A DNA stretch of 64,000 bases, from the IMG/VR virus record IMGVR_UViG_3300029288_003766, positions 25,787 to 89,786 of that record. One strand, given 5' to 3'. The notes beneath the pieces were generated by a model. The model was given only the letters and a program-made list of their open reading frames with translations, was not told where the DNA came from and did no database searches. This DNA comes from a virus (Duplodnaviria > Heunggongvirae > Uroviricota > Caudoviricetes). The position numbers and the translations under genes are program-made. This document shows positions 1,120-58,619 of this stretch, one piece after another (the first letter of the stretch is position 1; every line of letters starts with the position of its first letter).

Positions 1120-2427
1120 TTAGTCTCCTTTGATAACAGCCATTGGGCTTAACTCAACTAGGATTTCAACAAGATCATTTTGGTTGGCCATAACTTCTGA
1201 AATATCCTTATACGCTCCTGAGGCCTCATCCAAATTTTTCTGAGTTCTCACCCCATGGACAATGCCTTGATCATCAAGCTTCTTCTGCTCTTCTTCAAGG
1301 TTAAGTGTCTTGCAGGCCTGGTTTCTGCCCATCTTCCTACCTGCTCCGTGTGAGCAGCTCTCAAAGCTGTCTTTATTGCCGAGGCCTTTAACGATATATG
1401 ATTTGGTGCCCTGAGATCCCGGTATGATTCCTAGTTCACTGGTCTTAGCTGATGTAGCTCCCTTCCTGTGGACCATAACGTTTGAACCAAAATGGTTTTC
1501 AAGACGAGCATAATTGTGGGCTATGTTTATTTCACTTACAAAAGCAGACATTTCTATCTTTTCACCGCTCATTACTTTTTCTTTTATAAAAATATCCTGA
1601 AATATGCTTATAATTCTCTTCATCATCAGCTTCCTGTTTGCCAAAGCAAAGTCAATGCAATACTGCATTTCAGCTAGATAATTTTGTCCTTCTCTACTAT
1701 CTAATGGAAGAAAGGCCAATGAGTCTTCTTTCTTTTTAGGCAAGTGTGTGTTAGAAAACCAATTGATGTTTAAATTATACGCTAATTCATTATAATGTTT
1801 GGCTACTTTATAGCCTAAGTTTCGACTACCCGAATGGATCATAATCCAAACATTATTTTCATTATCTTTTTGAATTTCTATAAAATGATTGCCCGAACCA
1901 AGCGTGCCTAATTGGAATAGGGCATCAACATACTCGCCGGCAACAATAGGAATATTATATTCTTTAATTTCTTTATCAGGCATATCCGATTCTTTTTGAG
2001 CTTGTTTCTGGTGGTCAAACCCCACTGGAATAACTTCTCTTATCTTACCCATAATCTTCTTAAGAGTTTCTTTGTCTAGCTGATCTACTTTAAGAGAAGT
2101 CTTAACAGCGCACATACCACAACCTATATCCACTCCAACTGCATTAGGCACCACCACTCCTTCAGTGGCCAATACACCACCTATAGGCATACCGTAACCG
2201 CTATGGCAATCCGGCATAATAGCAATATGGTGAAAAGCAAAAGGTAGCCTAGCAAGATTAAGTATCTGTTCCCTGGCTGATTCCTCTACGCCCATATGAT
2301 GTATAGCACTCTCTTTTGTTTGGGGAAGTTCCGGCGGATATGACCAGCTCTCTCCCCATTTCAACCATAATTTAATTGGCACTTTTATTTTGTTGTCGAG
2401 TCCAGTAAAATCTATTTCACTTATCAT
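1120..2427 (-). CDS. rtcB: RNA-splicing ligase RtcB (3'-phosphate/5'-OH RNA ligase)
   Basis: 435 aa with hallmark RtcB motifs: MPDCHSGYG, GVDIGCGM, LGTLGSGNHFIEIQ, HSGSRNLG, HNYA, HRKGAT. Confidence 0.9.
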   Translation of the reverse strand: MISEIDFTGLDNKIKVPIKLWLKWGESWSYPPELPQTKESAIHHMGVEESAREQILNLARLPFAFHHIAIMPDCHSGYGMPIGGVLATEGVVVPNAVGVDIGCGMCAVKTSLKVDQLDKETLKKIMGKIREVIPVGFDHQKQAQKESDMPDKEIKEYNIPIVAGEYVDALFQLGTLGSGNHFIEIQKDNENNVWIMIHSGSRNLGYKVAKHYNELAYNLNINWFSNTHLPKKKEDSLAFLPLDSREGQNYLAEMQYCIDFALANRKLMMKRIISIFQDIFIKEKVMSGEKIEMSAFVSEINIAHNYARLENHFGSNVMVHRKGATSAKTSELGIIPGSQGTKSYIVKGLGNKDSFESCSHGAGRKMGRNQACKTLNLEEEQKKLDDQGIVHGVRTQKNLDEASGAYKDISEVMANQNDLVEILVELSPMAVIKGD

Positions 2428-16312: not shown

Positions 16313-16768
16313 ATGAAAATTACTGCAGCAGATATTCGTGAAGTTTTAAGTCATACTAACTATGACAATCTTTTTGTCCCCGAATTTACTTGGGGAGGTT
16401 TAAGAATAGATGCTATTTTAATAGATACTGATCATAGGTGGATAAGGGGGTATGAGATAAAAGTTGACAGGAAGGACTTCTTGAAGGATAATAAGTGGGT
16501 TGACTACTCTACTTTTTGTTCTTCATTATGTGTTGTATGCCCGGAAGGTCTTATCCAGCCCGAGGAGATCCAAAAGCCTTTTGGCCTGATTTGGATCAAC
16601 AACAGATCTTATGATAGGATACAATATAAGAAGAAGCCTTCTAATTTCCAGCGTAGGAATAGCCTCGCTTGGTTATACACATATGTCAGGGTGCTGGAAA
16701 CAGAATTTAGAAGGATATATTTTTCTCAGCAAAATCCAATTATAGTAGAGACAACTAAAGATAAATAA
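16313..16768 (+). CDS. PD-(D/E)xK nuclease-fold protein (MmcB-like)
   Basis: RIDAILID ... GYEIKVDRKDF gives a D / ExK arrangement. I preferred the ATG at 16313 to the track GTG at 16271 because 16206-16296 forms a closed RNA-like structure. Confidence 0.4.
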   Translation: MKITAADIREVLSHTNYDNLFVPEFTWGGLRIDAILIDTDHRWIRGYEIKVDRKDFLKDNKWVDYSTFCSSLCVVCPEGLIQPEEIQKPFGLIWINNRSYDRIQYKKKPSNFQRRNSLAWLYTYVRVLETEFRRIYFSQQNPIIVETTKDK

Positions 16769-17958
16769 TGATAGATATAAGAGTAGGTAATTGTTTAGAT
16801 AAGTTAAAAGAGATCCCAGATGATATTATTGATTCTTGCATCACCAGCCCACCATACTACGGACTTCGAGATTATCAAACAGCTACCTGGGAAGGTGGAG
16901 ATCTTAATTGCGATCATAAGGGAAAACCTTTTGCTACCAAGAAAAATGTTAATAAAAATACCGGCGGTCGGGATGTAAAAAATATAGAAGATAGAGAATT
17001 TTTTAAGGATATATGCAGGAAATGCGGGGCAAAGAGAAAAGATGACCAAATTGGGCTTGAGCAGACTCCTGATGCTTATGTAGAGAAGCTGGTTCAGGTA
17101 TTTAGGGAAGTTAGGCGCGTATTGAAGCCTACCGGAAATCTCTGGCTTAACTTGGGTGACTCATTTTCCGGTAGCAGGGGAAATAGAGGCAACGATATAA
17201 AAGAAGATATAGCATGGAAGAGAAAAGGTACAACACCAGATAAACGTCCAACAGCTTCTGTTGTGGGTCTAAAACCAAAGGATCTTATCGGAATTCCTTG
17301 GATGGTAGCGTTTGCTCTAAGAGCAGACGGTTGGTGGCTACGGCAGGACATAATTTGGCAAAAATCGAATCCTATGCCAGAATCAGTTACAGACCGCTGC
17401 ACTAAATCCCACGAGTATATCTTTCTGCTCGCCAAATCACAAAAATATTATTTTGATCATAAAGCAATAAGAGAACAGGGATCTGCTGATCAAATCCCTA
17501 GGCTTATGCGTGGTGTATCAGAGACCCACAAGAATGTAGATGGTGCACCTGGCCAGACCCCCCACAGTATGAACAAGCCTAGGAAAAATTTCAAGAAAGA
17601 AATGGGCGGAGGTGGAACATCTTTCATTAATCATAGCGGGTATTATAAAGCTGACGGCACCCTGATTTCAGATGGGATGAGGAACAAGCGTGATGTTTGG
17701 ATAATAAGTACAAAGCCGTTTAAAGAGGCACATTTTGCTACCTTCAGCAAAGAGTTAATTTTGCCTTGTGTCTTGGCCGGCTGTCCAAAAGACGGAACTA
17801 TTCTTGATCCATTTATGGGAAGTGGCACAACAGGTGTAGTAGCCAAAGAGAACAACCGTAATTTTATTGGTGTAGAGTTGAATCCCGCTTATGCTGAGAT
17901 GGCACGGAAGAGAATAGATAATGCTATCAGTAATTCATTATTAGACTTTATAAAATAG
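16768..17958 (+). CDS. DNA methyltransferase, beta-class amino-MTase (SPPY motif, likely N4-cytosine or N6-adenine)
   Basis: Motif IV TSPPYYG near the N-terminus and motif I DPFMGSGTTGVVAKE near the C-terminus, a beta-class arrangement. No cognate restriction enzyme seen. Confidence 0.8.
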   Translation: MIDIRVGNCLDKLKEIPDDIIDSCITSPPYYGLRDYQTATWEGGDLNCDHKGKPFATKKNVNKNTGGRDVKNIEDREFFKDICRKCGAKRKDDQIGLEQTPDAYVEKLVQVFREVRRVLKPTGNLWLNLGDSFSGSRGNRGNDIKEDIAWKRKGTTPDKRPTASVVGLKPKDLIGIPWMVAFALRADGWWLRQDIIWQKSNPMPESVTDRCTKSHEYIFLLAKSQKYYFDHKAIREQGSADQIPRLMRGVSETHKNVDGAPGQTPHSMNKPRKNFKKEMGGGGTSFINHSGYYKADGTLISDGMRNKRDVWIISTKPFKEAHFATFSKELILPCVLAGCPKDGTILDPFMGSGTTGVVAKENNRNFIGVELNPAYAEMARKRIDNAISNSLLDFIK

Positions 17959-17967
17959 AGGATAAAT

Positions 17968-18726
17968 ATGGATATTAAACTTATTTTAGGAGATTGTTTA
18001 ACAGAGCTCAAGAAGATCTCAGAAAATTCTGTGGATTTAATAGTGACTAGCCCACCCTATAACAAGAATGGGTTTAGAGGCAAACGTGATACATCTAGAG
18101 GTAAAGGCAGATGGTCGGGGGCAGATATATACTATGATGAATATATGGATGATATGGATGAGAAAGCATACAAGGATTGGCAAACATCTGTCCTAGATGA
18201 GTGCTACAGGGTTATTAGGCCTACAGGAAGCATATTATACAACCATAAGGTCAGAAGGGCTTCTGGTAGGGCTTCCCACCCCATGGAATGGCTTCTAAGG
18301 TGTAAGGCCCGGTTCTATCAACAGATAATCTGGGATAGGGGGTCGGGTCCAGATCATAATATAGGTTACCTTGACCCCACAACAGAGCTTATATTTTGGC
18401 TGGTAAAAGAAACCCCCAAATGTCATAAGGATAAGAACTGGGCTACTGAGGTCTGGCGTATACCACCAATTCCTACTGATAATGATCATCCAGCTCCTTT
18501 TCCTAAGAAACTCTGCAAAGCTGCAATTTTGACTACTACAGATGAAGGTGATACAGTGCTAGATCCTTTTATGGGATCTGGCACAGCCGGAGTAGTTGCC
18601 AAAGAACTTGGTCGCAATTTTATTGGTATAGAATTAAACCCGAAATATATAGAAATCGCTAAAGATCGAATTAATAAAGTTATTGGGAATGTTTTTAATC
18701 ATTCATTACGGGGGATATTGAAATGA
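17968..18726 (+). CDS. DNA methyltransferase, beta-class amino-MTase (SPPY)
   Basis: TSPPYNKNG and DPFMGSGTAGVVAKELGRNFIGIELNPKY. Confidence 0.8.
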   Translation: MDIKLILGDCLTELKKISENSVDLIVTSPPYNKNGFRGKRDTSRGKGRWSGADIYYDEYMDDMDEKAYKDWQTSVLDECYRVIRPTGSILYNHKVRRASGRASHPMEWLLRCKARFYQQIIWDRGSGPDHNIGYLDPTTELIFWLVKETPKCHKDKNWATEVWRIPPIPTDNDHPAPFPKKLCKAAILTTTDEGDTVLDPFMGSGTAGVVAKELGRNFIGIELNPKYIEIAKDRINKVIGNVFNHSLRGILK

Positions 18727-19370
18727 GCATTAATTTGATATTGGGAGATTGCTTAGAAGAAATGAAAAAGATTCCAGATAAGTCTATTGATCTTATATTA
18801 ACAGATCCGCCATATGGGGTTAATCTCAAATATGATTTATACAACGATACTGAAGATAATTGGTTTAAATTGATGACAAAATTTATACCAGAGGCAAGAA
18901 GAATAGCTAAGATGGTTATATTACCATCTTGTCAGATCAAAAGACTTACTTGGGTATATAATAATTTTCCTCCTGATTGGTTGATCTGTTGGTATAAAGG
19001 GTCGACAGGATGCTCAGCGTTTATTGGTTTTAACGATTGGGAACCTCTTTTAGTTTACGGCAAACGAAAAGGAGTTTGGATGCATGATTATTTCCAGGCC
19101 GCGAATAATGAGAAAATGGGCAACTACGGTCATCCTTGCCCTAAGCCTCTTGCTTGGGCTAAGTGGTTAATAGAAAAATCAAAGGCTCAAACAGTATTAG
19201 ATCCTTTTATGGGATCTGGCACAACCGGAGTAGCTGCTAAGGAGTTGGGTCGAGATTTTATAGGTATAGAACTTAGCCCTAAGTATTTTGATATAGCAAA
19301 GGAAAGAATAGAAGGAACTTTGAAATCCTGTTCTTTGGTAGATATGATAAAGATAAACAAAGAAGATTAA
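18723..19370 (+). CDS. DNA N6-adenine methyltransferase, beta-class (DPPY)
   Basis: TDPPYGVN and DPFMGSGTTGVAAKELGRDFIGIELSPKY; 4-nt overlap with upstream MTase. Confidence 0.8.
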   Translation: MSINLILGDCLEEMKKIPDKSIDLILTDPPYGVNLKYDLYNDTEDNWFKLMTKFIPEARRIAKMVILPSCQIKRLTWVYNNFPPDWLICWYKGSTGCSAFIGFNDWEPLLVYGKRKGVWMHDYFQAANNEKMGNYGHPCPKPLAWAKWLIEKSKAQTVLDPFMGSGTTGVAAKELGRDFIGIELSPKYFDIAKERIEGTLKSCSLVDMIKINKED

Positions 19371-19439: not shown

Positions 19440-19467
19440 TTGACAAAGACAAATTTTTATGTATAAT
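19440..19467 (+). promoter_or_regulatory. sigma70-type promoter (TTGACA - 16 nt - TGn TATAAT)
   Basis: TTGACA at 19440-19445 and TATAAT at 19462-19467 with TG immediately upstream (extended -10). TTTTATAAATTTTATAAA box at 19370-19387 upstream. About 30 nt before the ATG at 19497. Confidence 0.6.
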
Positions 19468-20640: not shown

Positions 20641-20923
20641 AACTAAAAGAAAACCGGCGTATGAAATAGTTTTAAACGCCTTGCAAGCAGGATTGACTGT
20701 GAGGTTAGGTGACCGCGAGTATATGATGCAAGATGACCAAATAGTGATTAAAGTTACTTGCTATAAAAATGGACTTGATAAGGATTGTGAAGAGAAGATG
20801 TTGGTCATTGATATGACTCTAAACAATTTTATTAGTTTATGTAACCAAATTCCTGAGAATGAGTTGTTTGGAATAGGTTGTAGTGTTGCTTTGACTAATA
20901 TGCACAAGGAAAAGAACAGATGA
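20627..20923 (+). CDS. hypothetical protein (98 aa)
   Basis: Start taken at the ATG at 20627 (MKETKTKRK). Confidence 0.4.
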   Translation: MKETKTKRKPAYEIVLNALQAGLTVRLGDREYMMQDDQIVIKVTCYKNGLDKDCEEKMLVIDMTLNNFISLCNQIPENELFGIGCSVALTNMHKEKNR

Positions 20924-21879
20924 AAGAGCGAGAAATAGCAGAAAATAATCGTATACTGGAGATCATAACAGGCAGCCATCTTTACGGGACTGCCTCTGAG
21001 ACATCAGACAGGGATTATGTAGGTATTTTTCTTCCCAGCACTGAGTATGTTCTTGGTTTTAAAACCATAGAAGAAGTAGATTTCTCTGTTGTAGATAAAA
21101 ATGAAGCCGGCAAGAATACTGAAAAGGCCTTGGATCGAAAGCTTTATGAGTTTCGGAAATTTATGAAGCTTGCTATGGAGAACAACCCCAATATTATTGA
21201 GATTTTGTTTGCAAACCCGGAGAATATTGTATATAGCAATAATATAGGTAAGGAGTTGTTAGATATTAGGCATTTTTTTCCTTATAAAGGGCTTAAAGAG
21301 AAGTTTCTAGGATATGCTTTCAGCCAGAAGCATAAGATGGTTATCAAAAAAGACAACTACTTCGAATTGATGGATGCAGTAGGTTTTCTCAAAAACCAGA
21401 ACCCGGGTAAGATTATTCTTGAGATAGCTTTGGGCAACTGCCCCTACTTCCTTAAGAAACAGTTGGATAAGGAGAACAACATAAGCTTCATAAAAGTGGG
21501 TGATCTTAACCTTATGCCTCATATCACAACTAAGAAAGCTGCTGAGATGATATCTGATCGATTAGATAAGGTAGGAAACAGGGAAGAGCTGCTGACCAAA
21601 TATGGATATGACACCAAGTTTGCTTCGCATCTTATAAGGCTAATGCTAGAAGGAATTGAGTTGCTTAATACTGGAGAGATTAAATTTCCTCTACAGTACG
21701 CCGGAACATTACGAGATATTAGAAATGGTAAATGGAGTATAGAGGATATTTTTAACTATTCAGCTGAGCTGGAGAATGAAATGAGCTCTGTAGTTGAAAA
21801 ATCAACCTTACCTTTGAAACCAAACACTGATTTATTGGAAAGATTTACTATTTTAACATTGAGGGAGGCAATTATATGA
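20920..21879 (+). CDS. Pol-beta-superfamily nucleotidyltransferase
   Basis: ITGSHLYGTASETSDRDYVGIF matches the GS-x(9-13)-DxD nucleotidyltransferase signature; 319 aa. Confidence 0.55.
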   Translation: MKEREIAENNRILEIITGSHLYGTASETSDRDYVGIFLPSTEYVLGFKTIEEVDFSVVDKNEAGKNTEKALDRKLYEFRKFMKLAMENNPNIIEILFANPENIVYSNNIGKELLDIRHFFPYKGLKEKFLGYAFSQKHKMVIKKDNYFELMDAVGFLKNQNPGKIILEIALGNCPYFLKKQLDKENNISFIKVGDLNLMPHITTKKAAEMISDRLDKVGNREELLTKYGYDTKFASHLIRLMLEGIELLNTGEIKFPLQYAGTLRDIRNGKWSIEDIFNYSAELENEMSSVVEKSTLPLKPNTDLLERFTILTLREAII

Positions 21880-22738: not shown

Positions 22739-23586
22739 TGGGCGGCGGAATGTATTCAGTATCGGCAAGAGCAATGTCCGGCAGATCCGATTATTACAAA
22801 TCGGCGTCTCCTTCTGAAATATTTAAGGAGAAGAGTGTAAACAACGCCATGAATCCCAACGGAATCAAGATCAGGGAATCTAGGGATTCTAAAGAGCATC
22901 CAAACAGCTTGGCCATAATTCTGGCTTTGGATGTTACGGGTAGCATGGGCAGCATCCCCGTCCATCTTATTAAGGATGGGTTCCCGACTATGATGGAAAC
23001 CATCATAAAGGATGGAGTCAAAGATCCGCAAGTTCTGTTCTTAGGGATAGGTGATCATGAGTGTGACAGCGCGCCCCTACAGGTTGGCCAATTTGAGAGC
23101 TCAGATGAGCTCTTGGATCATTGGCTTCAGACTATCTATCTTGAGGGTGGGGGCGGAGGTAACGCCGGAGAATCATACCTCTTGGCCTATTACTTTGCGG
23201 CGAAGCATACCTCTATTGACTGCTTCGAGAAGAGGGGCCAGAAAGGTTGGCTCTTTACCGTTGGTGATGAGCCTCCGTTAAAGCGTGTTCCTAAGTCTTC
23301 CTTGCAGGAGATTATGGGAGATGGCCAGTATGATAATATGGATATAGGCACCCTGATAGATGAAGCGAGGAAAACATACAATGTCTATCATATCCTGATT
23401 AAACAAGGATCAGCTGGATCTCTGGATAGGACATATAATGCATGGAAGCAATTATTAGGAGATAACCTCCTAATCGCGGAGCATCATGAAGATGTTCCAA
23501 AGATTATCTCTGATACTATCAATAAAAACGTATCTCCGGCCAAAGTTGAAAGTGTAAAGCCGGAAACAGGAGATATTTTACTGTAA
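22738..23586 (+). CDS. von Willebrand factor A (vWA) domain protein
   Basis: LALDVTGSMG fits the MIDAS DxSxS motif. Confidence 0.55.
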   Translation: MGGGMYSVSARAMSGRSDYYKSASPSEIFKEKSVNNAMNPNGIKIRESRDSKEHPNSLAIILALDVTGSMGSIPVHLIKDGFPTMMETIIKDGVKDPQVLFLGIGDHECDSAPLQVGQFESSDELLDHWLQTIYLEGGGGGNAGESYLLAYYFAAKHTSIDCFEKRGQKGWLFTVGDEPPLKRVPKSSLQEIMGDGQYDNMDIGTLIDEARKTYNVYHILIKQGSAGSLDRTYNAWKQLLGDNLLIAEHHEDVPKIISDTINKNVSPAKVESVKPETGDILL

Positions 23587-24455
23587 TGAAGTGTCGATCA
23601 ACTAACAGTGGAGTCTATATGATTATTAATAATATAAATGGAAAATTCTATATAGGCTCCACTGTTAATTTCCAACAAAGATGTTATGAACATTTGAAAA
23701 GATTGAGGCAAAATAAACATCATTCTCCCATGCTTCAGAATTCTTGGAATAAATATGGGGAAGAATATTTTATATTTAATATTGTTGAAGAAGTATCTGG
23801 AGCATCTAATTTAATAGAAAAGGAACAATTTTGGATTGATTGTTTACACCCTAAATTTAATTGGGGCAAGGTTGCTGGTAGCCCCGCAGGTATTAAACGC
23901 TCAGAAAAAACAAAAGCCTTACTAAGGAAAATAACATTGAAACAATTTAAGGATAAAGGCCATCCTTGTAAAGGTAAAAAATATGGACCAGAAGCTAGAG
24001 AAAACATGTCTAACGCACATAAAGGAAAATCTTTAAAAGAAATGGGCCACAATAAAAAGTGTGTGTGCTCTGTTTGTAAAACCAAGAGACACGAGATAAT
24101 AGGTAATAAACACCCAAACTATGGAAAGCGGGGAAAATCCTTACCAGAGATGGGGCATAAGAAAAGATGTATGTGTTCTGTTTGTAAGGCTTCACGCCAC
24201 GAACTAGTTGGTAATAAAAACCCAAACTACAAAAAACAACCTTCTATTGAAGCGATAGAAAAAATTAGAAAAAAACTTTTAATACCAATTTCCCAGTATT
24301 CTAAAACAGGAGAGTTTATAAAAAATTGGGATGGCGCTATTATAGCTGCGCAAGAACTAAACTTATTTGCTACGGGAATTAATGCTTGTTTAAGAGGAAA
24401 ACTAAAGACTAGCGGAGGTTTTATTTGGAAATACATGGAGCCTTTATATGAGTAA
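23586..24455 (+). CDS. GIY-YIG homing endonuclease with NUMOD3 repeats
   Basis: GVYMIINNINGKFYIGST (GIY...YIG), repeated N.HKGK / NKHPNYGK NUMOD3-like units, duplicated CxCSVCK zinc knuckles, and a C-terminal IPISQYSKTGEFIKNWDGAIIAAQELN DNA-binding-like tail. Confidence 0.8.
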   Translation: MKCRSTNSGVYMIINNINGKFYIGSTVNFQQRCYEHLKRLRQNKHHSPMLQNSWNKYGEEYFIFNIVEEVSGASNLIEKEQFWIDCLHPKFNWGKVAGSPAGIKRSEKTKALLRKITLKQFKDKGHPCKGKKYGPEARENMSNAHKGKSLKEMGHNKKCVCSVCKTKRHEIIGNKHPNYGKRGKSLPEMGHKKRCMCSVCKASRHELVGNKNPNYKKQPSIEAIEKIRKKLLIPISQYSKTGEFIKNWDGAIIAAQELNLFATGINACLRGKLKTSGGFIWKYMEPLYE

Positions 24456-25569
24456 CTTTGTGGTTATAGGATGTCAATTCGGAGACGAAGGCAAGGGATT
24501 GGTAACTGATTGGTTATGTTCTCAATCCTCAAAACCGGCTGAGGTAGTAAGATTTACCGGGGGGCATCAATGCGGCCATACTGTTGTAGTCGACGGTAAG
24601 AGGCATGTGTTCTCCAGCTTTGGTTCAGGAACGTTAAGAGGAGTTCCTACTTATTGGTCACATTTCTGTACGGTTAACCCAATAGGATTTGTTAACGAGT
24701 TGATGATATTACAAGAAAAGGATATTGAACCTGAAATATTTATAGAAGGAGATTGCCCTGTTACTACTCCTTATGATGTTTTAAATAATAAGTGGGATCA
24801 CGAAATTAAACAACATGGTAGCTGTGGTGTAGGATTTGGAGCAACAATGCAGAGAGAAGAAGATTTCTATTCTTTGACATTTTATGATCTGTTCTTCCCC
24901 GATATATTAAGGGAAAAATTGAAGAATATTAATGAATGCTACTATGAGATGACCGGAGTAGATGTTAATATAGATTCATTCCTGAGATGCTGCAACACGA
25001 TGACAAAAATTGATAATATAAAGATGAAGGTCCCTACCGGGATTAAGGAAAAAATATTTGAGGGAGCGCAGGGGCTTATGTTAGATCAACATTTTGGAGT
25101 CTTTCCTAATGTTACAAGATCTAATACAGGAACTAAGAATTTAGTAGATGCTGGTTGGATTAAGGAAGAAGATGAAATATATTTAGTAACTCGTGCTTAC
25201 CAAACTAGGCACGGCAACGGGTTTATGACAAATGAAAATATTCCACATAATATTAAAAAAAATATACATGAAACTAACGTAGAGAACGCCTATCAAGGTA
25301 AATTTAGAAGGACCTTGTTAGATCTGTCTTTATTAGAATATAGCATAAACAAGGATGATTTTATACGCAACTCAAATAATAAGAGGCTAATAATTACCTG
25401 TCTTGATCATATAGAGAATGAACATAGATTTACATATAAAGGTGATACAGTAAACTGCTTGAACGAGGACGAATTTGTTTCTAAAATTTCGGATATTCTA
25501 GGTATAAAAACAATTTATTTAAGTCATTCAGAAGATTCTAAAAACATTATACAATGGAAAAAACAATGA
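24448..25569 (+). CDS. adenylosuccinate synthetase family protein (PurA homolog; candidate PurZ-type 2-aminoadenylosuccinate synthase)
   Basis: VVIGCQFGDEGKGLVTD (P-loop GDEGKGK-like) and GGHQCGHTV (GGHNAGHTV-like) PurA motifs. 373 aa, shorter than bacterial PurA. Phage context. Confidence 0.7.
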   Translation: MSNFVVIGCQFGDEGKGLVTDWLCSQSSKPAEVVRFTGGHQCGHTVVVDGKRHVFSSFGSGTLRGVPTYWSHFCTVNPIGFVNELMILQEKDIEPEIFIEGDCPVTTPYDVLNNKWDHEIKQHGSCGVGFGATMQREEDFYSLTFYDLFFPDILREKLKNINECYYEMTGVDVNIDSFLRCCNTMTKIDNIKMKVPTGIKEKIFEGAQGLMLDQHFGVFPNVTRSNTGTKNLVDAGWIKEEDEIYLVTRAYQTRHGNGFMTNENIPHNIKKNIHETNVENAYQGKFRRTLLDLSLLEYSINKDDFIRNSNNKRLIITCLDHIENEHRFTYKGDTVNCLNEDEFVSKISDILGIKTIYLSHSEDSKNIIQWKKQ

Positions 25570-26258
25570 AAAAAGGCGACGGACTGGATATTGGAAATCG
25601 GATGAAGCAGTATGAGAATATAACCGAAGCTCATCTGACTAGAAGAGTGCCTGTTATAGTTAGAGTAGATGGAAGAGCTTTTCACACCATAACTCGGACA
25701 AGGTTTAAGAGAGCATGGTCCCAAGAGTTTGTGGACCAGATGTCCGAGGTAGCTATGGTTGTCCAAGGAGATATGCAAGGTTGTGATTTCTGCTATGCCC
25801 AATCAGATGAGATCTCTTTTCTTTTAACCGATTACAAGACTATACGTACACAACCTTGGTTTGATTATGATCTTAGGAAGATAATCTCAATATCAGCTTC
25901 ATTAGCCAGTAGTGTATTTTCGAGGATTTATGGCAAGAATGTAGCCTTTGACAGCCGAGCGTTTAATATGCCTCAAGATGAGGTAGTAAATTACTTTATT
26001 TGGAGGCAGATAGATGCTACGCGCAACGCTATTCAGATGGCTGGCAGGGAGTACTTTTCCCACAAGGAATTAAATAATCTTAGCTGTAATGAAATACAAG
26101 AGAAGCTGTTTAAAGAGAAAGAGATCAATTTTAATGATTACCCTACTATAAGGAAGAGAGGATTTACTGTTATCAAGGGTGCTATTGATATTGGTATTCC
26201 TATCTTTACTCAGGATAGAAACTATGTTGAGAAGTTTGTTAATGTTCGAGAGGATTAA
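25554..26258 (+). CDS. Thg1-like protein (tRNA-His guanylyltransferase family, 3'-5' polymerase)
   Basis: VIVRVDGRAFH, AQSDEISF, SASLASSVFS and FIWRQIDATRN align with conserved Thg1/TLP blocks. True start may be the ATG at 25566 (ATGA overlap). Confidence 0.75.
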   Translation: MEKTMKKGDGLDIGNRMKQYENITEAHLTRRVPVIVRVDGRAFHTITRTRFKRAWSQEFVDQMSEVAMVVQGDMQGCDFCYAQSDEISFLLTDYKTIRTQPWFDYDLRKIISISASLASSVFSRIYGKNVAFDSRAFNMPQDEVVNYFIWRQIDATRNAIQMAGREYFSHKELNNLSCNEIQEKLFKEKEINFNDYPTIRKRGFTVIKGAIDIGIPIFTQDRNYVEKFVNVRED

Positions 26259-26260
26259 TA

Positions 26261-26500
26261 ATGGACCAATCTAACATAAAAAGCCCCTCAGATCGAAAAG
26301 TTTGGGCACAGATCTTTACTGAGATCAATATTAGGACTGCTACTAAAAAACATTGTGGTAAAGACTGCCCCCACTTGATTTGGATACCTATGAAGATAGG
26401 AGATTTATGTAAACTTTTTAAGAAGAGGTTAAAACACGACAAGAAAAATTATTTATTACGTTGTGAAGAGTGTGTGAGCTCAGAAATAAAGAGAGATTAA
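26261..26500 (+). CDS. hypothetical protein (79 aa)
   Basis: Coupled ORF with Cys pairs. Confidence 0.4.
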   Translation: MDQSNIKSPSDRKVWAQIFTEINIRTATKKHCGKDCPHLIWIPMKIGDLCKLFKKRLKHDKKNYLLRCEECVSSEIKRD

Positions 26501-26860
26501 ATGGAAAAAGAACTGATAACTAAATTAGCTGATGCTTATAAAGAAATTGATCTTTTAACAAGAGATATTAAGCAGTGGAAAGACAGAAAGTTTGAATTTG
26601 CGGTACATGACGCTATTATTGCAGATATTGTTAATCGTTTATACGGTTCCGGTGCTCATGGTTCTCCAAGCATTATGAGTATGGTTCATTGTGGTTTTGT
26701 TTGCGGTTTAGGGGGAACAAAAGCCGAACCATCTTTTGTCAGGTCTATGTATAAAGCCTATAAAATATTCCCTAATGAACAACAGGAAAAAGAATTAAAC
26801 GAGTGGGAAGAATTTTTAAATACATTACAGAAAAGAGATTATAAACAAAAAGAGGATTAG
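26501..26860 (+). CDS. hypothetical protein (119 aa)
   Basis: Coupled ORF. Confidence 0.45.
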   Translation: MEKELITKLADAYKEIDLLTRDIKQWKDRKFEFAVHDAIIADIVNRLYGSGAHGSPSIMSMVHCGFVCGLGGTKAEPSFVRSMYKAYKIFPNEQQEKELNEWEEFLNTLQKRDYKQKED

Positions 26861-50996: not shown

Positions 50997-51439
50997 GAGA
51001 AATAAAGTTTAGAATATGGGATAAAGAAAGGAAGAATTGGGGTTGGACTTACTCTTTGGCCTTACATTGTTCTGGCCAGTTATATAGTCACCCTGGTTGT
51101 CATAATCAAACTCCTCATTATGAGATAATGCTATCTACCGGTCTTAAAGACAAAAATGGTAAGGAAATCTATGAGGGAGATATAATAAAATGGTCGGAGG
51201 ATCATTTAACGGATGGTGGTGAAAACATAAAGACTATAAAAGACATTGGTGAAGTGATTTGGTCACCAGAGTTTGCTATGTTTGGTTTGCGGGGTAGAGA
51301 ACTTGGTCATTGGCAGTTTTATGAACATCAGGAATACGAGGTTCTTGGTAATATCTATGAAAACCCTGAACTAAGAATAAAACAGAAAACAGCGGAAGAT
51401 CGGGTAAATGATATAGAATCGTTAAAAAATGAAAAATGA
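50993..51439 (+). CDS. YopX-family phage protein
   Basis: MREIKFRIWDK ... VLGNIYENPELRIK. Confidence 0.7.
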   Translation: MREIKFRIWDKERKNWGWTYSLALHCSGQLYSHPGCHNQTPHYEIMLSTGLKDKNGKEIYEGDIIKWSEDHLTDGGENIKTIKDIGEVIWSPEFAMFGLRGRELGHWQFYEHQEYEVLGNIYENPELRIKQKTAEDRVNDIESLKNEK

Positions 51440-51998
51440 TAAACCAATATCTAAAATAGTTGCTTTGGTGGGTGCGCCGGCCTGTGGTAAGACAACTCTA
51501 TCACTTAATTTGGTAACACAATTGAAGGTCAGAAACAAGAATGCTAAATATATCTTAGAATATCCTAGGGATTATATAGAGAAATATGGGCATCCACAAC
51601 ATATCTCTGAGCAGATGCTTATATTTCTTGGGTGGAACAGGCTGTTAGATAACGCTGCTGGCATACGATATGATTATCTTATTTGTGATAGTCCTGTATT
51701 TATTTCTTATGTGTATGGTGTATACAAGAGTGATCCCTCAGTACCTAAAGATAGGATGTGGATATTAGAATTGTTGGGTATGGCTTTAGAATCTATCCAA
51801 ATGTATGATAAAATATTCTACATTAGGCCGGGTAGAGAATTTCCAATTAAAGATAATTTAAGACATTCAAATCTTGACATTCAGAAGAAAATAGATGATA
51901 ATATACGCGGCTTCTTGAATTTGTATAAAGTGCCTTATGAAGAAATTGTTAACACAGATTTAAAGAAGAGCACAGATTATATTATATCGAGGATATAA
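51429..51998 (+). CDS. P-loop NTPase, putative nucleoside/nucleotide kinase (NadR-like)
   Basis: Walker A ALVGAPACGKTT near N-terminus, 189 aa. Confidence 0.45.
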   Translation: MKNDKPISKIVALVGAPACGKTTLSLNLVTQLKVRNKNAKYILEYPRDYIEKYGHPQHISEQMLIFLGWNRLLDNAAGIRYDYLICDSPVFISYVYGVYKSDPSVPKDRMWILELLGMALESIQMYDKIFYIRPGREFPIKDNLRHSNLDIQKKIDDNIRGFLNLYKVPYEEIVNTDLKKSTDYIISRI

Positions 51999-55125: not shown

Positions 55126-55521
55126 ATGGAAGATAAGAAAAAACTCTTTTATTACTTAGATAATATCTACATCAAGAAAGAGATTCCAGATGATTCAGAA
55201 ATAAGATCTCTGGTATGGCCGATTAACCGCTTCTTAAGTATGGAGAAGGATCTTCTTAAGGAAGTTGCTGAGCTTTCCAAATATATGTTCACATTGGGCG
55301 CTCAATATTATAAATTGTTATTGCGGGTAGTCCCAAAACTTAACCGATCTCCGAGAAATAAATATATTAAAGTAGAGAAAGAAGTTGATGATGATCTTTT
55401 AGATAGATATACTCAGTATTTCCAATTGAGCCGGCGAGAAGTCAGAGATTATTTGAAAATACTATTTAAACAGCGTAGTAAAAAAGAGATATATGAGTTT
55501 GTGGGCCTTGAGGCTAAATGA
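55126..55521 (+). CDS. hypothetical protein (131 aa)
   Basis: Coupled ORF. Confidence 0.45.
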   Translation: MEDKKKLFYYLDNIYIKKEIPDDSEIRSLVWPINRFLSMEKDLLKEVAELSKYMFTLGAQYYKLLLRVVPKLNRSPRNKYIKVEKEVDDDLLDRYTQYFQLSRREVRDYLKILFKQRSKKEIYEFVGLEAK

Positions 55522-56153
55522 TGGTATATGGGTATATTTATGAAACAATGAACAGACATAACGGAATGATTTATATTGGGAAATTAAAAGGAAAATTTAA
55601 CTCATCATATTATGGTAGTGGTGTTGTTCTAAATCTAGCTATAAATAAGTATGGAAAAGATAGTTTTGCAATAAGAATAATTGATTACGCTGAAACTAAA
55701 CACCGTTTGAATAAAATGGAGAAGGCCTACATTTCAGCTTATCGAACAGTATACGGAAAAGAAAGTATGTATAATATTTCCGATGGTGGAGATGGCGGTG
55801 GTGGTTGTAAGTATCATAAAATAAATTGTGATTGCGGGTTTTGCAAAGCCCAACGGGGTGAGGCTAAAAAAGAAGATAATCCATTTTTTAATAAACATCA
55901 TTCTGAAAAAACGAGAAAGAAGATGAGTTTAGCTAAGAAAATACAACCATCACCTGGAATGACTGGTAAACATCATTCAAAAGAATCAAATGATAAGAAT
56001 AGATGTGCTCATATGGGGGTAATTCCAGCTAATAAAGGAAAAAAGGGTTTACAGATAGCTTGGAATAAAGGCCTCACTAAAGAAACTGATGAACGAGTTA
56101 GGAAAAATATACAAAATCGAATAGAAAATTACAAGAAAAATAAGACATTTTAA
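55518..56153 (+). CDS. GIY-YIG homing endonuclease with NUMOD3 repeats
   Basis: VYGYIYETMNRHNGMIYIGK, YNISDGGDGGGG, CDCGFCKAQRGE zinc knuckle, basic NUMOD3-like repeats. Confidence 0.75.
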   Translation: MMVYGYIYETMNRHNGMIYIGKLKGKFNSSYYGSGVVLNLAINKYGKDSFAIRIIDYAETKHRLNKMEKAYISAYRTVYGKESMYNISDGGDGGGGCKYHKINCDCGFCKAQRGEAKKEDNPFFNKHHSEKTRKKMSLAKKIQPSPGMTGKHHSKESNDKNRCAHMGVIPANKGKKGLQIAWNKGLTKETDERVRKNIQNRIENYKKNKTF

Positions 56154-56177: not shown

Positions 56178-58619
56178 ATGACTAATATCTCTGATCTTAT
56201 CTCTGTCCATAAAGACAACGCTCACAAACGTGCCCAATGCTCTGAATGTCCTTATATAGGCAGAACATTTGTCCCAGCTAGTGTCTCCCCTCATAGTGAT
56301 CTTATTATTGTTGGAGAGGCCCCGGGGCAAAGTGAGGCGTCGCAGGGTACTCCTTTTGTCGGAGAAAGCGGTCAGTTGCTTAGGAGAACTTTACATGATG
56401 TGGGTTTCGACGTTCCAAGCATTACATTCACGAACGCATGCCATTGCCACCCTCCGGGCAACGAACAACCTCATAAGAAGGCGCAAGATCTTTGCACCAA
56501 GATGTATTTGTTCAATGAAATAAAAGAGCTCAAGCCAAAACTAGTTGTGCTTGCTGGCTCAACAGCCTTAAATATTTTCTTTCCAAAAGAAAAGATAATG
56601 AACAAGGCGGGCAACTTCTTAGAAGCTCAGGGTATGAGGTTTTTGCCTGTTCTTCACCCCGCTTACTGCTTAAGAAATCCCATGTCTGTTCCGAGACTAA
56701 GAAAGGATTTAAAAAAGGCTTACCAGTATCTTAATAATGAAATGTCTGATAAGCATAATTTTATTGTTGTAGATACTATAGAGAAGCTTGAGGGTGCCCG
56801 CCAAGATTTGGTTATTAGGCCCCCCGATGTAATGGCTTTTGATGTTGAAACTAATGAGCTCTTAGATGTATTTGATAAAAATATGGTCTTATGGGCTATC
56901 GGTTTTAGTGCCGGCGACGATAAATGTTATTCTATTCCTCTTGATCACCCTGAAAATGATAATATTGAATTTAGAGGGATGTGTTGGGATCTTGCAAAAA
57001 CAACTTTGGGGAACGCTGCTAAGAAAATAGCTCATAATGCTGCTTTTGATCTAAAAGTACTCAAAAAAATGGGTATTGGCTACAAGAACTTCTACGCGGA
57101 TACGATGGTAATGGCTTTTTTACTGGATGAAAACAGATATTCTGTAGGTTTGAAACAGTTATCATCAGAATACTTAGACGGCTGTATGTATGAATTTACT
57201 AAAGATCTTAAAAACCTATGTGTATACAATTCCGAGGACTGTAATAACACAATAGGTCTTTTCCATAAATTTGAACCAGAACTTATAATATACCAGAGAT
57301 TATGGATCCTATTTGAGAAGATCCTGATGCCAATGATTGAAGTAATTGTAGATATGGAACTGGATGGTGTATTTATAGACACAAAAGCAAGTAGTAAACT
57401 GACTGTTGATCTTCATAGAAAGTTGGATGCGGTTTATGAAAGTATAGCAGATAAGTTCCCGCAAGCTAATGGTGTTAATCTTAACTCTACTAAGCAGCTT
57501 CGTGAACTTATGTTTGAGAAATTAAAGTACCCTCAGGGAAGATTGACAGATAAGGGTGAACTTTTAGCAAAGGTTAGAGGCGGCAGACATAGATTAACAA
57601 AAGAAGAACTTAAAGATAATTTAAGTACAGATAATGAAGTGTTGGAGAGTCTATCACATAAAGGGCATAAACTAGCGACTTATTTATTAAAGATTCGTAA
57701 ATATGAGAAGTTGCTCTCTACCTATGTGGAAAAACTACCTAAGATAATTAAGGATGATGGTAAGATACACGGTCATTTTAATCTTACAGGAGCTCGCACA
57801 GGTAGAACATCATCTAGCGATCCAAATCTCCAAAACATACCCACAGATAAGTTAGTCAAGGGTATGTTTGTAGCTTCACCGGGTAATATGTTATTACAAG
57901 CAGACTTCTCACAGGCCGAATTGCGAGTTGGTTGTTCTATTGCTAATGAACCAACGATGATAAAAGCCTACCAGGAGGGGAGGGATGTACATAAACTAAC
58001 TGCTTCTAAAGCTCTCGGTGTTGATGAAGATGCTGTTACAAAAGCACAAAGGCAAATAGCTAAGGGAATTAACTTTGGTTTCATCTACGGTGCGTCTGCT
58101 GAGGGGTTCCAAAGGCTGATGGAACATGATTATGGTATTAAACTATCATTAGAGGAGTGCGTTAACTTCAGGCAGGCGTATTTTGCTACTTACTCTGGTT
58201 TTCTTAGCTGGTATGATAGAATACGGGATTCTTTAAGAGAGTTTGGATATGTTGAGTATCCTACGGGGAGATTTAGAAGGTTTCCTGAAGTAAAGGGTAA
58301 AGATAGAATACCTGATGATATATTTAGGCAGGCTGCTAACAGCCCTGTTCAAGGATCATCAAGTGATATTTTATTATTTACTATGGTTAAGATAAAGAAA
58401 ATAATAAAAAAATACAAATTATCGGTGAAGATTATTTTGACTGTGCATGATTCTATAGTATTTGATGGGCCGGAGGATGATTTAAGATCTATTATTGTGC
58501 CTGAGATGAATAATATATGTGTTGATGACGTACCGAAACAATTTGGATGGCTTAAGGTCCCAATGAAATTTGATTATTCAATAGGTCCTAATTGGGGGGA
58601 GCTTGCGGAAATAAAGTAA
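56178..58619 (+). CDS. family A DNA polymerase with N-terminal UDG-superfamily (family-4-like) domain and 3'-5' exonuclease domain
   Basis: N-term GEAPGQSEA...PFVGESGQLL and VLHPAYCLRNP (UDG family 4-like motifs). Exo motif MAFDVETNEL. Pol motif A LLQADFSQAELRV, motif B KGINFGFIYGAS, motif C LTVHDSIVFD. Confidence 0.85.
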   Translation: MTNISDLISVHKDNAHKRAQCSECPYIGRTFVPASVSPHSDLIIVGEAPGQSEASQGTPFVGESGQLLRRTLHDVGFDVPSITFTNACHCHPPGNEQPHKKAQDLCTKMYLFNEIKELKPKLVVLAGSTALNIFFPKEKIMNKAGNFLEAQGMRFLPVLHPAYCLRNPMSVPRLRKDLKKAYQYLNNEMSDKHNFIVVDTIEKLEGARQDLVIRPPDVMAFDVETNELLDVFDKNMVLWAIGFSAGDDKCYSIPLDHPENDNIEFRGMCWDLAKTTLGNAAKKIAHNAAFDLKVLKKMGIGYKNFYADTMVMAFLLDENRYSVGLKQLSSEYLDGCMYEFTKDLKNLCVYNSEDCNNTIGLFHKFEPELIIYQRLWILFEKILMPMIEVIVDMELDGVFIDTKASSKLTVDLHRKLDAVYESIADKFPQANGVNLNSTKQLRELMFEKLKYPQGRLTDKGELLAKVRGGRHRLTKEELKDNLSTDNEVLESLSHKGHKLATYLLKIRKYEKLLSTYVEKLPKIIKDDGKIHGHFNLTGARTGRTSSSDPNLQNIPTDKLVKGMFVASPGNMLLQADFSQAELRVGCSIANEPTMIKAYQEGRDVHKLTASKALGVDEDAVTKAQRQIAKGINFGFIYGASAEGFQRLMEHDYGIKLSLEECVNFRQAYFATYSGFLSWYDRIRDSLREFGYVEYPTGRFRRFPEVKGKDRIPDDIFRQAANSPVQGSSSDILLFTMVKIKKIIKKYKLSVKIILTVHDSIVFDGPEDDLRSIIVPEMNNICVDDVPKQFGWLKVPMKFDYSIGPNWGELAEIK

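Follow-up and report, generated by a model that had tools for sequence, protein, structure and literature searches.

We report that a 64,000-nucleotide stretch of phage DNA (the window; positions 25,787 to 89,786 of the IMG/VR Caudoviricetes record IMGVR_UViG_3300029288_003766) codes for a protein of the Thg1/Thg1-like protein (TLP) superfamily, with the gene placed at 25566..26258 on the + strand. The membership of the phage protein in this superfamily is fully supported. By analogy with its characterized homologues, it probably catalyzes two-metal, templated 3'-5' addition of nucleotides to 5'-shortened tRNAs within a phage toolkit for tRNA maturation and repair.

The frame at 25554..26258 (+) is open for 234 codons without interruption, and its translation contains, exactly as quoted in the original prediction of a phage-encoded Thg1-family enzyme, the blocks VIVRVDGRAFH, AQSDEISF, and WRQIDATRN. 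That family assignment stands, as Pfam, PHROG, PDB, and fold matches all agree on it. The proposed profile search with PF04446 (Thg1) gave a match spanning profile positions 2-130 of 130 with a score of 80.9 bits, above the cutoff of 29.2 (E=1e-22), and PHROG 4717 ("tRNA-His guanylyltransferase") matched with E=5e-70. In HMMER searches of PDB sequences, the best match was 4kgk_A, the TLP of Bacillus thuringiensis (BtTLP; E=8e-53, query residues 12-231), followed by weaker matches to the Methanosarcina acetivorans TLP (MaTLP; 5axk, 2e-14) and eukaryotic Thg1 (about 1e-7). No other family scores higher; NCBIfam has no model for the protein, its sole match being a spurious one to Qnr (E=0.02). 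An AlphaFold2 model built on 29 homologues (mean pLDDT 87.5, pTM 0.83) was compared with the PDB by using Foldseek, and all 32 significant matches were Thg1/TLP chains, headed by 4kgm_B (TM score 0.88, root mean square deviation 2.2 Å over 228 columns).

Two in-frame ATG codons could serve as the start of the gene. The second, at 25566, which gives a protein of 230 amino acids, is the likelier one, being favored by the gene callers of the source assemblies and by the size of its 120 closest homologues, most of which have 227-231 amino acids. It overlaps, as ATGA, the TGA stop (25567-25569) of the PurA-like gene that precedes it, and a GGA stands 9 nucleotides before this ATG. Starting instead at the ATG at 25554, for a protein of 234 amino acids, would mean a 16-nucleotide overlap with the PurA-like gene. 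The predicted overlap between the TLP start and the stop of the PurA homolog holds for either ATG.

For the active site, we use the 234-amino-acid numbering, with residue roles following those worked out for BtTLP and for the Thg1 of humans and yeast (PMC3701042). When the query is aligned with 28 homologues that diverge from it at 25-37% of positions, E21, R37, D39, S84, D85, E86, K109, and R135 are invariant and M162 is kept in at least 90%; the HMMER alignment pairs these residues with E12, R28, D30, S74, D75, E76, K99, R131, and M158 of BtTLP, respectively. The segment R37-V38-D39 (25662..25670, +) comprises the nucleoside triphosphate (NTP)-contacting arginine and the first metal-binding aspartate (BtTLP R28/D30), and S84-D85-E86 (25803..25811, +) comprises the activation serine and the second and third catalytic carboxylates (BtTLP S74/D75/E76). 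The carboxylate triad is conserved in the family (D29/D76/E77 in human THG1; D30/D75/E76 in BtTLP; PMC3701042), and the residues whose absence would have counted against the original prediction, D39 of VRVDG and D85 and E86 of SDE, align with it and are invariant. Also kept are all of the triphosphate contacts of BtTLP (R28, K99, and R131, as R37, K109, and R135) and the E12 salt bridge (as E21). A small departure is that BtTLP R16 aligns with Glu25 of the query. Because many active-site columns are invariant among homologues that are 25-37% divergent and the open reading frame is intact, the gene is likely to be under purifying selection. Judging from its sequence, the phage TLP is predicted to be catalytically intact.

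Within the superfamily, the protein can be assigned to a subtype by the segment WRQIDATRNAIQM (26001..26039, +), which is of the TLP type in alignments to 4kgk and 3wbz; its counterparts are WRQQDASKNSISM in BtTLP and WRQVDCHINNLYN in Candida Thg1. Here, DATRNAIQM of the query is aligned to DCHINNLYN of Candida Thg1, and the HINNLYN motif of eukaryotic Thg1 is not found in the query in this alignment. Met162 falls at the position of BtTLP M158, which in yeast Thg1 is Asn161, the asparagine that marks a bona fide Thg1. The absence of HINNLYN therefore points to a TLP of the tRNA 5'-end repair type rather than a dedicated tRNA-His G-1 enzyme, and both the E values given above and the Foldseek ranking place the query nearer the characterized TLPs BtTLP and MaTLP than Thg1. 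In vitro, TLPs favor templated repair of 5'-truncated tRNAs of several identities (PMC3061083). Because the protein is a TLP, the name "tRNA-His guanylyltransferase" under which it appears in databases is misleading.

The protein is further distinguished by a shortened β-hairpin, FTVIKGAIDIGI (26163..26198, +), which occupies only 12 residues between conserved RG and P anchors in a MAFFT alignment. The same segment has 24 residues in BtTLP, where it reads KEFYEKNGALRSRWS, and in gp143 of Bacillus phage Bc431v3 and 14 residues in ORF126 of the Xanthomonas jumbo phage XacN1. The strands KEFYEK and LRSRWS, with a conserved arginine, are absent from the query, for which the AlphaFold2 model has a minimal hairpin (strands 200-203 and 206-208). 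This is the usual form in its immediate kin, 112 of the 120 nearest homologues having a 12-residue segment. In 147 proteins that each represent a 50%-identity cluster, its length runs from 9 to 86 residues and is no more than 14 in 14 of them, so the short hairpin is an uncommon yet not a unique variant. In the MaTLP-tRNA complex, the flexible β-hairpin R198-R215 of the second subunit touches the tRNA elbow via a conserved arginine and has been proposed to measure acceptor-stem length; when it is deleted, tRNA(delta1) is no longer bound and activity falls to 5-13%, the anticodon-dependent tRNA-His mode surviving, and the authors of that study note that the hairpin is poorly conserved (PMC4820378). 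By analogy with this one archaeal enzyme, the short hairpin may alter how the phage enzyme engages its substrate. Given that hairpin length is variable across the family, the short form lowers our confidence in an identical binding mode and not in superfamily membership.

A protein 100% identical to the TLP over 230 amino acids (P0001) is encoded by a 214,834-bp metagenomic contig (ENA ERZ27247363 k141_3129171), on which the window lies at about 80.5-144.5 kb; the source is an uncultivated phage of jumbo size, about 215 kb. A megablast search with 24000-27000 of the window gave zero matches to GenBank phages, and hence the phage has no close cultured relative; the PolA of the window is at most 31% identical to that of any phage record. 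More than 2,100 homologues of the TLP were retrieved; the best 120 are 63-76% identical to it and all metagenomic, with several on contigs of roughly 90-200 kb or more. An exhaustive search gave at least 5,001 50%-identity clusters at E<1e-3, 820 of them at E<1e-30. With relatedness judged by pairwise identities, the query appears to fall, with at least 120 clusters that are 63-76% identical to it, in a distinct and wholly metagenomic clade, the separation resting on its identity of 45% to BtTLP and of 42-47% to the TLPs of cultured phages.

A search of IMG/VR for related loci with the TLP protein alone yielded no confirmed locus, and we read the gene neighborhoods of seven loci of the close clade (L002, L003, L004, L005, L010, L011, and L012). 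A CCA-adding enzyme is encoded within 5 kb of the TLP in three of the seven: L002, where it is joined by a SpoU methylase, L005, where tRNAs are also present, and L012, where it lies 0.4 kb downstream of the TLP. RtcB is found 1.3 kb upstream of the TLP in L004, an AAA_33 P-loop kinase in L010, and PTH2 in L011; the TLP of L003 has no recognizable neighbor. In two of these loci, the TLP gene lies among tRNA genes: in L011 (9699-10779), it is inside a tRNA array, flanked by tRNA-Ile and tRNA-Ala, and in L012 (10001-12384), it stands between tRNA-Ser and tRNA-His(GUG), the latter beginning 8 nucleotides past the TLP stop and being followed by the gene for the CCA-adding enzyme. These neighbor counts agree with the published picture of jumbo-phage RNA repair, in which Thg1 has been set beside RtcB, Rnl1/2, RlaP, and the CCA-adding enzyme (Iyer et al. 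2021, PMC7824862). Near the CCA-adding enzyme gene of L005 (12438-12634), ARAGORN also calls two overlong tRNAs, Ile-AAU of 91 nucleotides and Arg-ACG of 96 nucleotides, which may have introns or be false calls.

The window itself codes for three further enzymes of RNA repair. These are an RtcB 3'-phosphate/5'-OH RNA ligase (1120..2427, -; PF01139 E=3e-114, PHROG 1075 E=2e-119), an RNA-ligase-associated Pol-β (RlaP) family nucleotidyltransferase (20920..21879, +; PF10127 E=1e-17, PHROG 388 E=2e-65), and an Rnl2-like ATP-dependent RNA ligase (33200..34117, +; PF09414 44 bits against a cutoff of 27, PHROG 548 E=3e-27). RtcB is 23 kb from the TLP, RlaP 3.7 kb upstream of it, and the Rnl2-like ligase 7 kb downstream. 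The Rnl2-like ligase has a weak match to T4 Rnl2 (2hvq, E=4e-4) and 25% identity to Ac42 RnlB; its translation contains EKIHG, EGIVLR, and KHKNDKF, which we take to be the Rnl2-type motifs I (KxHG), IV (EGxVxK/R), and V (KxK). The co-occurrence of RtcB and an Rnl2 ligase with the TLP had been predicted and is found in the window, with RlaP in addition. The accompanying claim that the phage could mend both tRNA ends is overstated, because RtcB and Rnl2 seal internal breaks rather than repair 3' ends and a scan of 17 window open reading frames of at least 300 amino acids brought up no CCA-adding enzyme.

Several other genes of the region bear on RNA or lie close to those just described. The Rnl2-like ligase gene is inside a cluster of membrane-protein-like genes (31476-35508, +), which codes, in order, for an SPFH/Band 7 protein, a small N_methyl (pilin-like) protein, the ligase, LemA, and a TPM-domain protein, an unusual neighborhood for a ligase. 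A gene 1 kb 3' of the TLP (27282-27722, +) codes for a 146-amino-acid HD-domain protein that is nearest a small alarmone/(p)ppApp hydrolase (PDB 7smg, 2e-14). Small alarmone hydrolases can reverse the pyrophosphorylation of tRNA 3' CCA ends by toxSAS enzymes, and by analogy the HD protein would be another tRNA-protecting gene. About 8 kb before window position 1 on the same contig are four tandem tRNA genes (locus L006, 20190-20509, -), adjoined by a Metallophos gene. All four have Leu anticodons (CAA, UAA, AAG, and UAG), are 75-77 nucleotides long, lack a long variable arm, and have A73; two have a G1.U72 wobble, and the Rfam tRNA threshold is passed by three. In bacteria, tRNA-Leu normally belongs to class II and measures about 85-89 nucleotides, and most tRNA-Leu in the relatives L011 and L012 have this form.

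With the family, fold, active-site residues, and context of the phage TLP established by these comparisons, homology to BtTLP and MaTLP offers a likely activity and substrate. The TLP would bind a tRNA that is one or a few nucleotides short at its 5' end. A 5'-monophosphate would be activated with ATP or GTP, or a 5'-triphosphate would be used directly, and the lost nucleotides would be added in the 3'-to-5' direction with the 3' strand of the acceptor stem as the Watson-Crick template, in a two-metal active site predicted to consist of D39, D85, and E86. The enzyme would thus form one part of a dispersed set for tRNA maintenance and repair, together with RlaP, the Rnl2-like ligase, and RtcB (and a CCA-adding enzyme in relatives), which may keep phage-encoded and/or host tRNAs usable during infection. 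The original prediction went further in suggesting that the phage is adapted to hosts carrying several tRNA-targeting defenses. This goes beyond the evidence, as the tRNA-array and CCA context in relatives fits maturation or quality control equally well; as for the benefit to the phage, the embedding of the gene in tRNA arrays would favor routine 5'-end quality control at least as much as counterdefense.

The standard annotation of the phage homologues implies a different enzyme, one dedicated to adding G-1 to phage or host tRNA-His for charging by HisRS. The tRNA-His(GUG) gene 8 nucleotides after the TLP stop in L012 is in keeping with this, as are the ability of BtTLP to add G-1 opposite C73 (PMC3061083) and the second, anticodon-dependent tRNA-His mode of MaTLP, which needs no hairpin and would suit a short-hairpin enzyme (PMC4820378). 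Set against these points are the lack of HINNLYN, the methionine at position 162 as in BtTLP, and a match to eukaryotic Thg1 that is about 45 orders of magnitude weaker than that to BtTLP. Further, no tRNA-His gene was found in the 84 kb of the source contig examined, and those next to the TLP of L012 and that of XacN1 come with G-1, C73, and CCA already encoded, which means that posttranscriptional addition of G-1 is not required there and leaves a need for the TLP in supplying G-1 to phage tRNA-His unsupported. We therefore regard a dedicated tRNA-His role as improbable. An inactive remnant, or a palm-domain synthase of nucleotide signals with no connection to RNA 5' ends, is far less probable still. 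The Thg1 palm is homologous to GGDEF/Cas10-type cyclases and CRISPR-polymerase domains (PMC2904730), and the tail of the Foldseek results holds weak matches to adenylyl and guanylyl cyclases (E of about 1e-2). Nonetheless, these cyclases reach a TM score of only about 0.3 versus 0.88 for TLP, no PADLOC defense model matches the protein, and the intact frame with active-site columns invariant across 25-37% divergence speaks against decay.

Another alternative is a change of substrate in the short-hairpin clade. Its members might act on RNAs that are not tRNAs with an intact body, such as tRNA halves, other small RNAs, or phage transcripts, or might chiefly perform the first half-reaction, in which 5'-adenylylation or -guanylylation would feed ligases or cap RNA; we judge these two versions together to be unlikely. 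The generation of 5'-App ends for ligation was proposed as a possible role of Thg1 by Anantharaman et al. 2010 (PMC2904730). A changed substrate would accord with the 12-residue hairpin without the conserved arginine (versus 24 residues in BtTLP) that prevails among the 120 close homologues, with the loss of tRNA(delta1) binding and most activity when the MaTLP hairpin is deleted (PMC4820378), and with the replacement of the ATP-site lysine by arginine. Conversely, the hairpin is of such variable length across the 147 representatives, and so poorly conserved by the account of the MaTLP authors, that its shortening need not signal a new substrate; the tRNA genes and CCA-adding enzyme near the TLP in relatives point to whole tRNAs, and the residues for the acceptor-stem 5' end and incoming NTP are all kept. 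A more specific idea, which we offer as a tentative and rather doubtful one, is that this jumbo-phage metagenomic clade is a natural "hairpin-less" TLP with a different substrate rule and no stop at +1 of a standard tRNA. It might, for example, use the anticodon-dependent tRNA-His mode only, rebuild the acceptor stem more deeply, or act on tRNA fragments together with RlaP, Rnl2, and RtcB. If true, the clade would provide a phage-specific specificity of 3'-5' polymerases and the first physiological substrate for a prokaryotic-type TLP.

Several observations weigh against templated repair of 5'-shortened tRNAs, or at least against its transfer from BtTLP and MaTLP without qualification. The elbow-binding hairpin, a feature of the TLP subtype, is half as long in the query as in BtTLP and lacks the conserved arginine. 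The column of BtTLP K43, the lysine of ATP activation, holds Arg53 in the query, with a lysine one residue earlier, unlike most clade members, which have lysine in this column; the K43A mutation of BtTLP reduces activation with ATP and spares that with GTP (PMC3701042). The Pfam Thg1C profile, with which a check for the C-terminal domain had been proposed, scores 21.2, below its cutoff of 26.3; here the fold gives the positive answer that the profile does not, for the model superposes over its full length on 4kgm_B and the sequence alignment reaches residue 231, and the C-terminal domain is therefore present. As regards context, no tRNA gene was detected in the 64-kb window, and the neighbor counts in relatives come without a background or permutation control. 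Moreover, we know of no host defense that truncates tRNA 5' ends, and our literature search found no paper with a biochemical or genetic characterization of a phage TLP.

The PurA-like gene directly 5' of the TLP (24448..25569, +) codes for a homologue of adenylosuccinate synthetase (PF00709 E=1e-46; PHROG 1211; E. coli PurA in the PDB, E=3e-25), confirming that the TLP sits immediately downstream of a PurA homolog. In the window, the two genes are translationally coupled. At 373 amino acids, the protein is C-terminally shorter than E. coli PurA (431 amino acids) and keeps GDEGKG; PurA-like genes of a similar kind are found in Rhizobium, Vibrio, and Mycobacterium phages. The label of PHROG 1211, "2-aminooxy adenylosuccinate synthetase," is a generic, PurZ-type one. 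We considered whether the protein is a PurZ of a 2-aminoadenine genome and rejected this, as its best PDB matches are to cellular PurA and the GDEGKG loop is kept; no PurZ-labeled chain occurs among its 22 PDB matches at E<=1e-3. Nor was a partner of the DatZ or MazZ kind seen: the HD protein resembles alarmone hydrolases rather than DatZ, and MazG-like genes were not seen either. A conserved functional pairing of PurA and TLP was likewise rejected: the gene upstream of the TLP in L002 and L004 is dissimilar to the PurA-like protein, and the gene calls at the seven relative loci include no Adenylsucc_synt gene. Since relatives do not keep the two genes side by side, the adjacency carries no functional weight. 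Genes for GIY-YIG/NUMOD homing endonucleases are found at 23586-24455 (+) and 55518-56153 (+), and because the former overlaps the start of the PurA-like gene, it suggests that a mobile element was inserted directly ahead of the PurA-TLP pair.

Beyond this neighborhood, the window (GC content, 37%) codes for replication and recombination proteins, namely, gp32-like, RecA/UvsX-like, UvsW-like, DnaB-like, primase, and clamp-loader proteins and a family-A polymerase, in addition to homing endonucleases and three DNA methyltransferases. The composition of the TLP gene is that of its neighbors, with no sign of a foreign insert; a promoter and terminator scan around it gave nothing above shuffled expectation, and an Rfam scan of the window found no family at its gathering score. 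PADLOC scans returned no match for the TLP, PurA-like, HD, and RlaP proteins or for a 282-amino-acid protein. In the family-A DNA polymerase (56178-58619, +), the 3'-5' exonuclease and polymerase domains are fused to a UDG-superfamily domain at the N terminus. The three N6/N4 DNA methyltransferase genes (396, 252, and 215 amino acids) stand in a row at 16768-19370 (+); between them and an M28 peptidase gene lies a sequence that matches the sigma-70 consensus perfectly (TTGACA-16-TATAAT, 19440-19467). A set resembling NAD salvage, at 27724-28863 (+), 30427-31110 (+), and 51429-51998 (+), has as its members a nicotinate phosphoribosyltransferase (NAPRTase; PncB-like), an isochorismatase-family protein (PncA-like nicotinamidase), and an AAA_28 kinase-like protein. 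Genes for NAPRTase and isochorismatase flank the TLP in the relative L002 too, and the set may counter NAD-depleting defenses.

Phages were already known to carry TLPs. By tblastn, TLPs were found in 154 GenBank phage records at 39-44% identity, with phages of Bacillus (44), Prevotella (15), Caulobacter (13), and Mycobacterium (11) prominent and others infecting Erwinia, Vibrio, Aeromonas, Burkholderia, Xanthomonas, and Fusobacterium; tRNA-His guanylyltransferase is the name given to the protein in most of the records listed. The Bc431v3 protein gp143 was flagged as unusual in 2013 (PMC3601020), ORF126/585 of XacN1 was listed among tRNA-processing genes in 2018 (PMC5852040), and an RNA-repair role had already been predicted from operon context by Anantharaman et al. 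in 2010 (PMC2904730). The short-hairpin variant and the abundant environmental clade that carries it are only modestly new elements. Phages that combine a TLP with tRNA arrays, a CCA-adding enzyme, and RNA ligases lend themselves to the search for what bacterial-type TLPs act on naturally, and the window contributes an environmental clade that is abundant, well conserved, and naturally truncated in its tRNA-elbow hairpin. Such a clade could inform how reverse polymerases choose substrates and stop and could serve 5'-end RNA engineering.

Among known enzymes, BtTLP (4KGK/4KGM; Hyde et al. 2013, PMC3701042; Rao et al. 2011, PMC3061083) is the nearest in both sequence and fold, with 45% identity. 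The two share the three carboxylates, the Arg/Lys/Arg triphosphate contacts, the activation serine, the methionine at the 158 position, and the lack of HINNLYN. The query differs in being phage encoded, in having a hairpin that is 12 residues shorter and without the arginine of LRSRW, in the changes of K43 to Arg and R16 to Glu, and in a 6-residue deletion after GKN. The phage TLPs of PHROG 4717, such as Bc431v3 gp143 and XacN1 ORF126/585, are members of the same family from large phages with tRNA and RNA-repair genes, although they share only 39-47% identity with the query. The XacN1 TLP, which is located in a tRNA-rich terminal repeat and has an RNA ligase 4 kb away, has a short hairpin (14 residues) like that of the query. 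In contrast, gp143 keeps the long hairpin and is 75% identical to BtTLP, for which reason it is plausibly host derived. MaTLP (5AXK-5AXN; Kimura et al. 2016, PMC4820378), the only TLP with a tRNA-bound structure and hence the mechanistic model used for the query, has the same fold and, by homology, would share its template-dependent repair chemistry; it is more distant, with about 30% identity, and its 18-residue elbow-reading hairpin (R198-R215) is largely missing in the query. With the eukaryotic Thg1 enzymes of yeast, human, and Candida (3OTB, 3WBZ, and 5XOX), the query shares the palm fold, the two-metal site, and, as homology would predict, 3'-5' addition. These enzymes are only about 20-23% identical to it and differ in having HINNLYN, in recognizing the anticodon, and in adding a nontemplated G-1 to tRNA-His.

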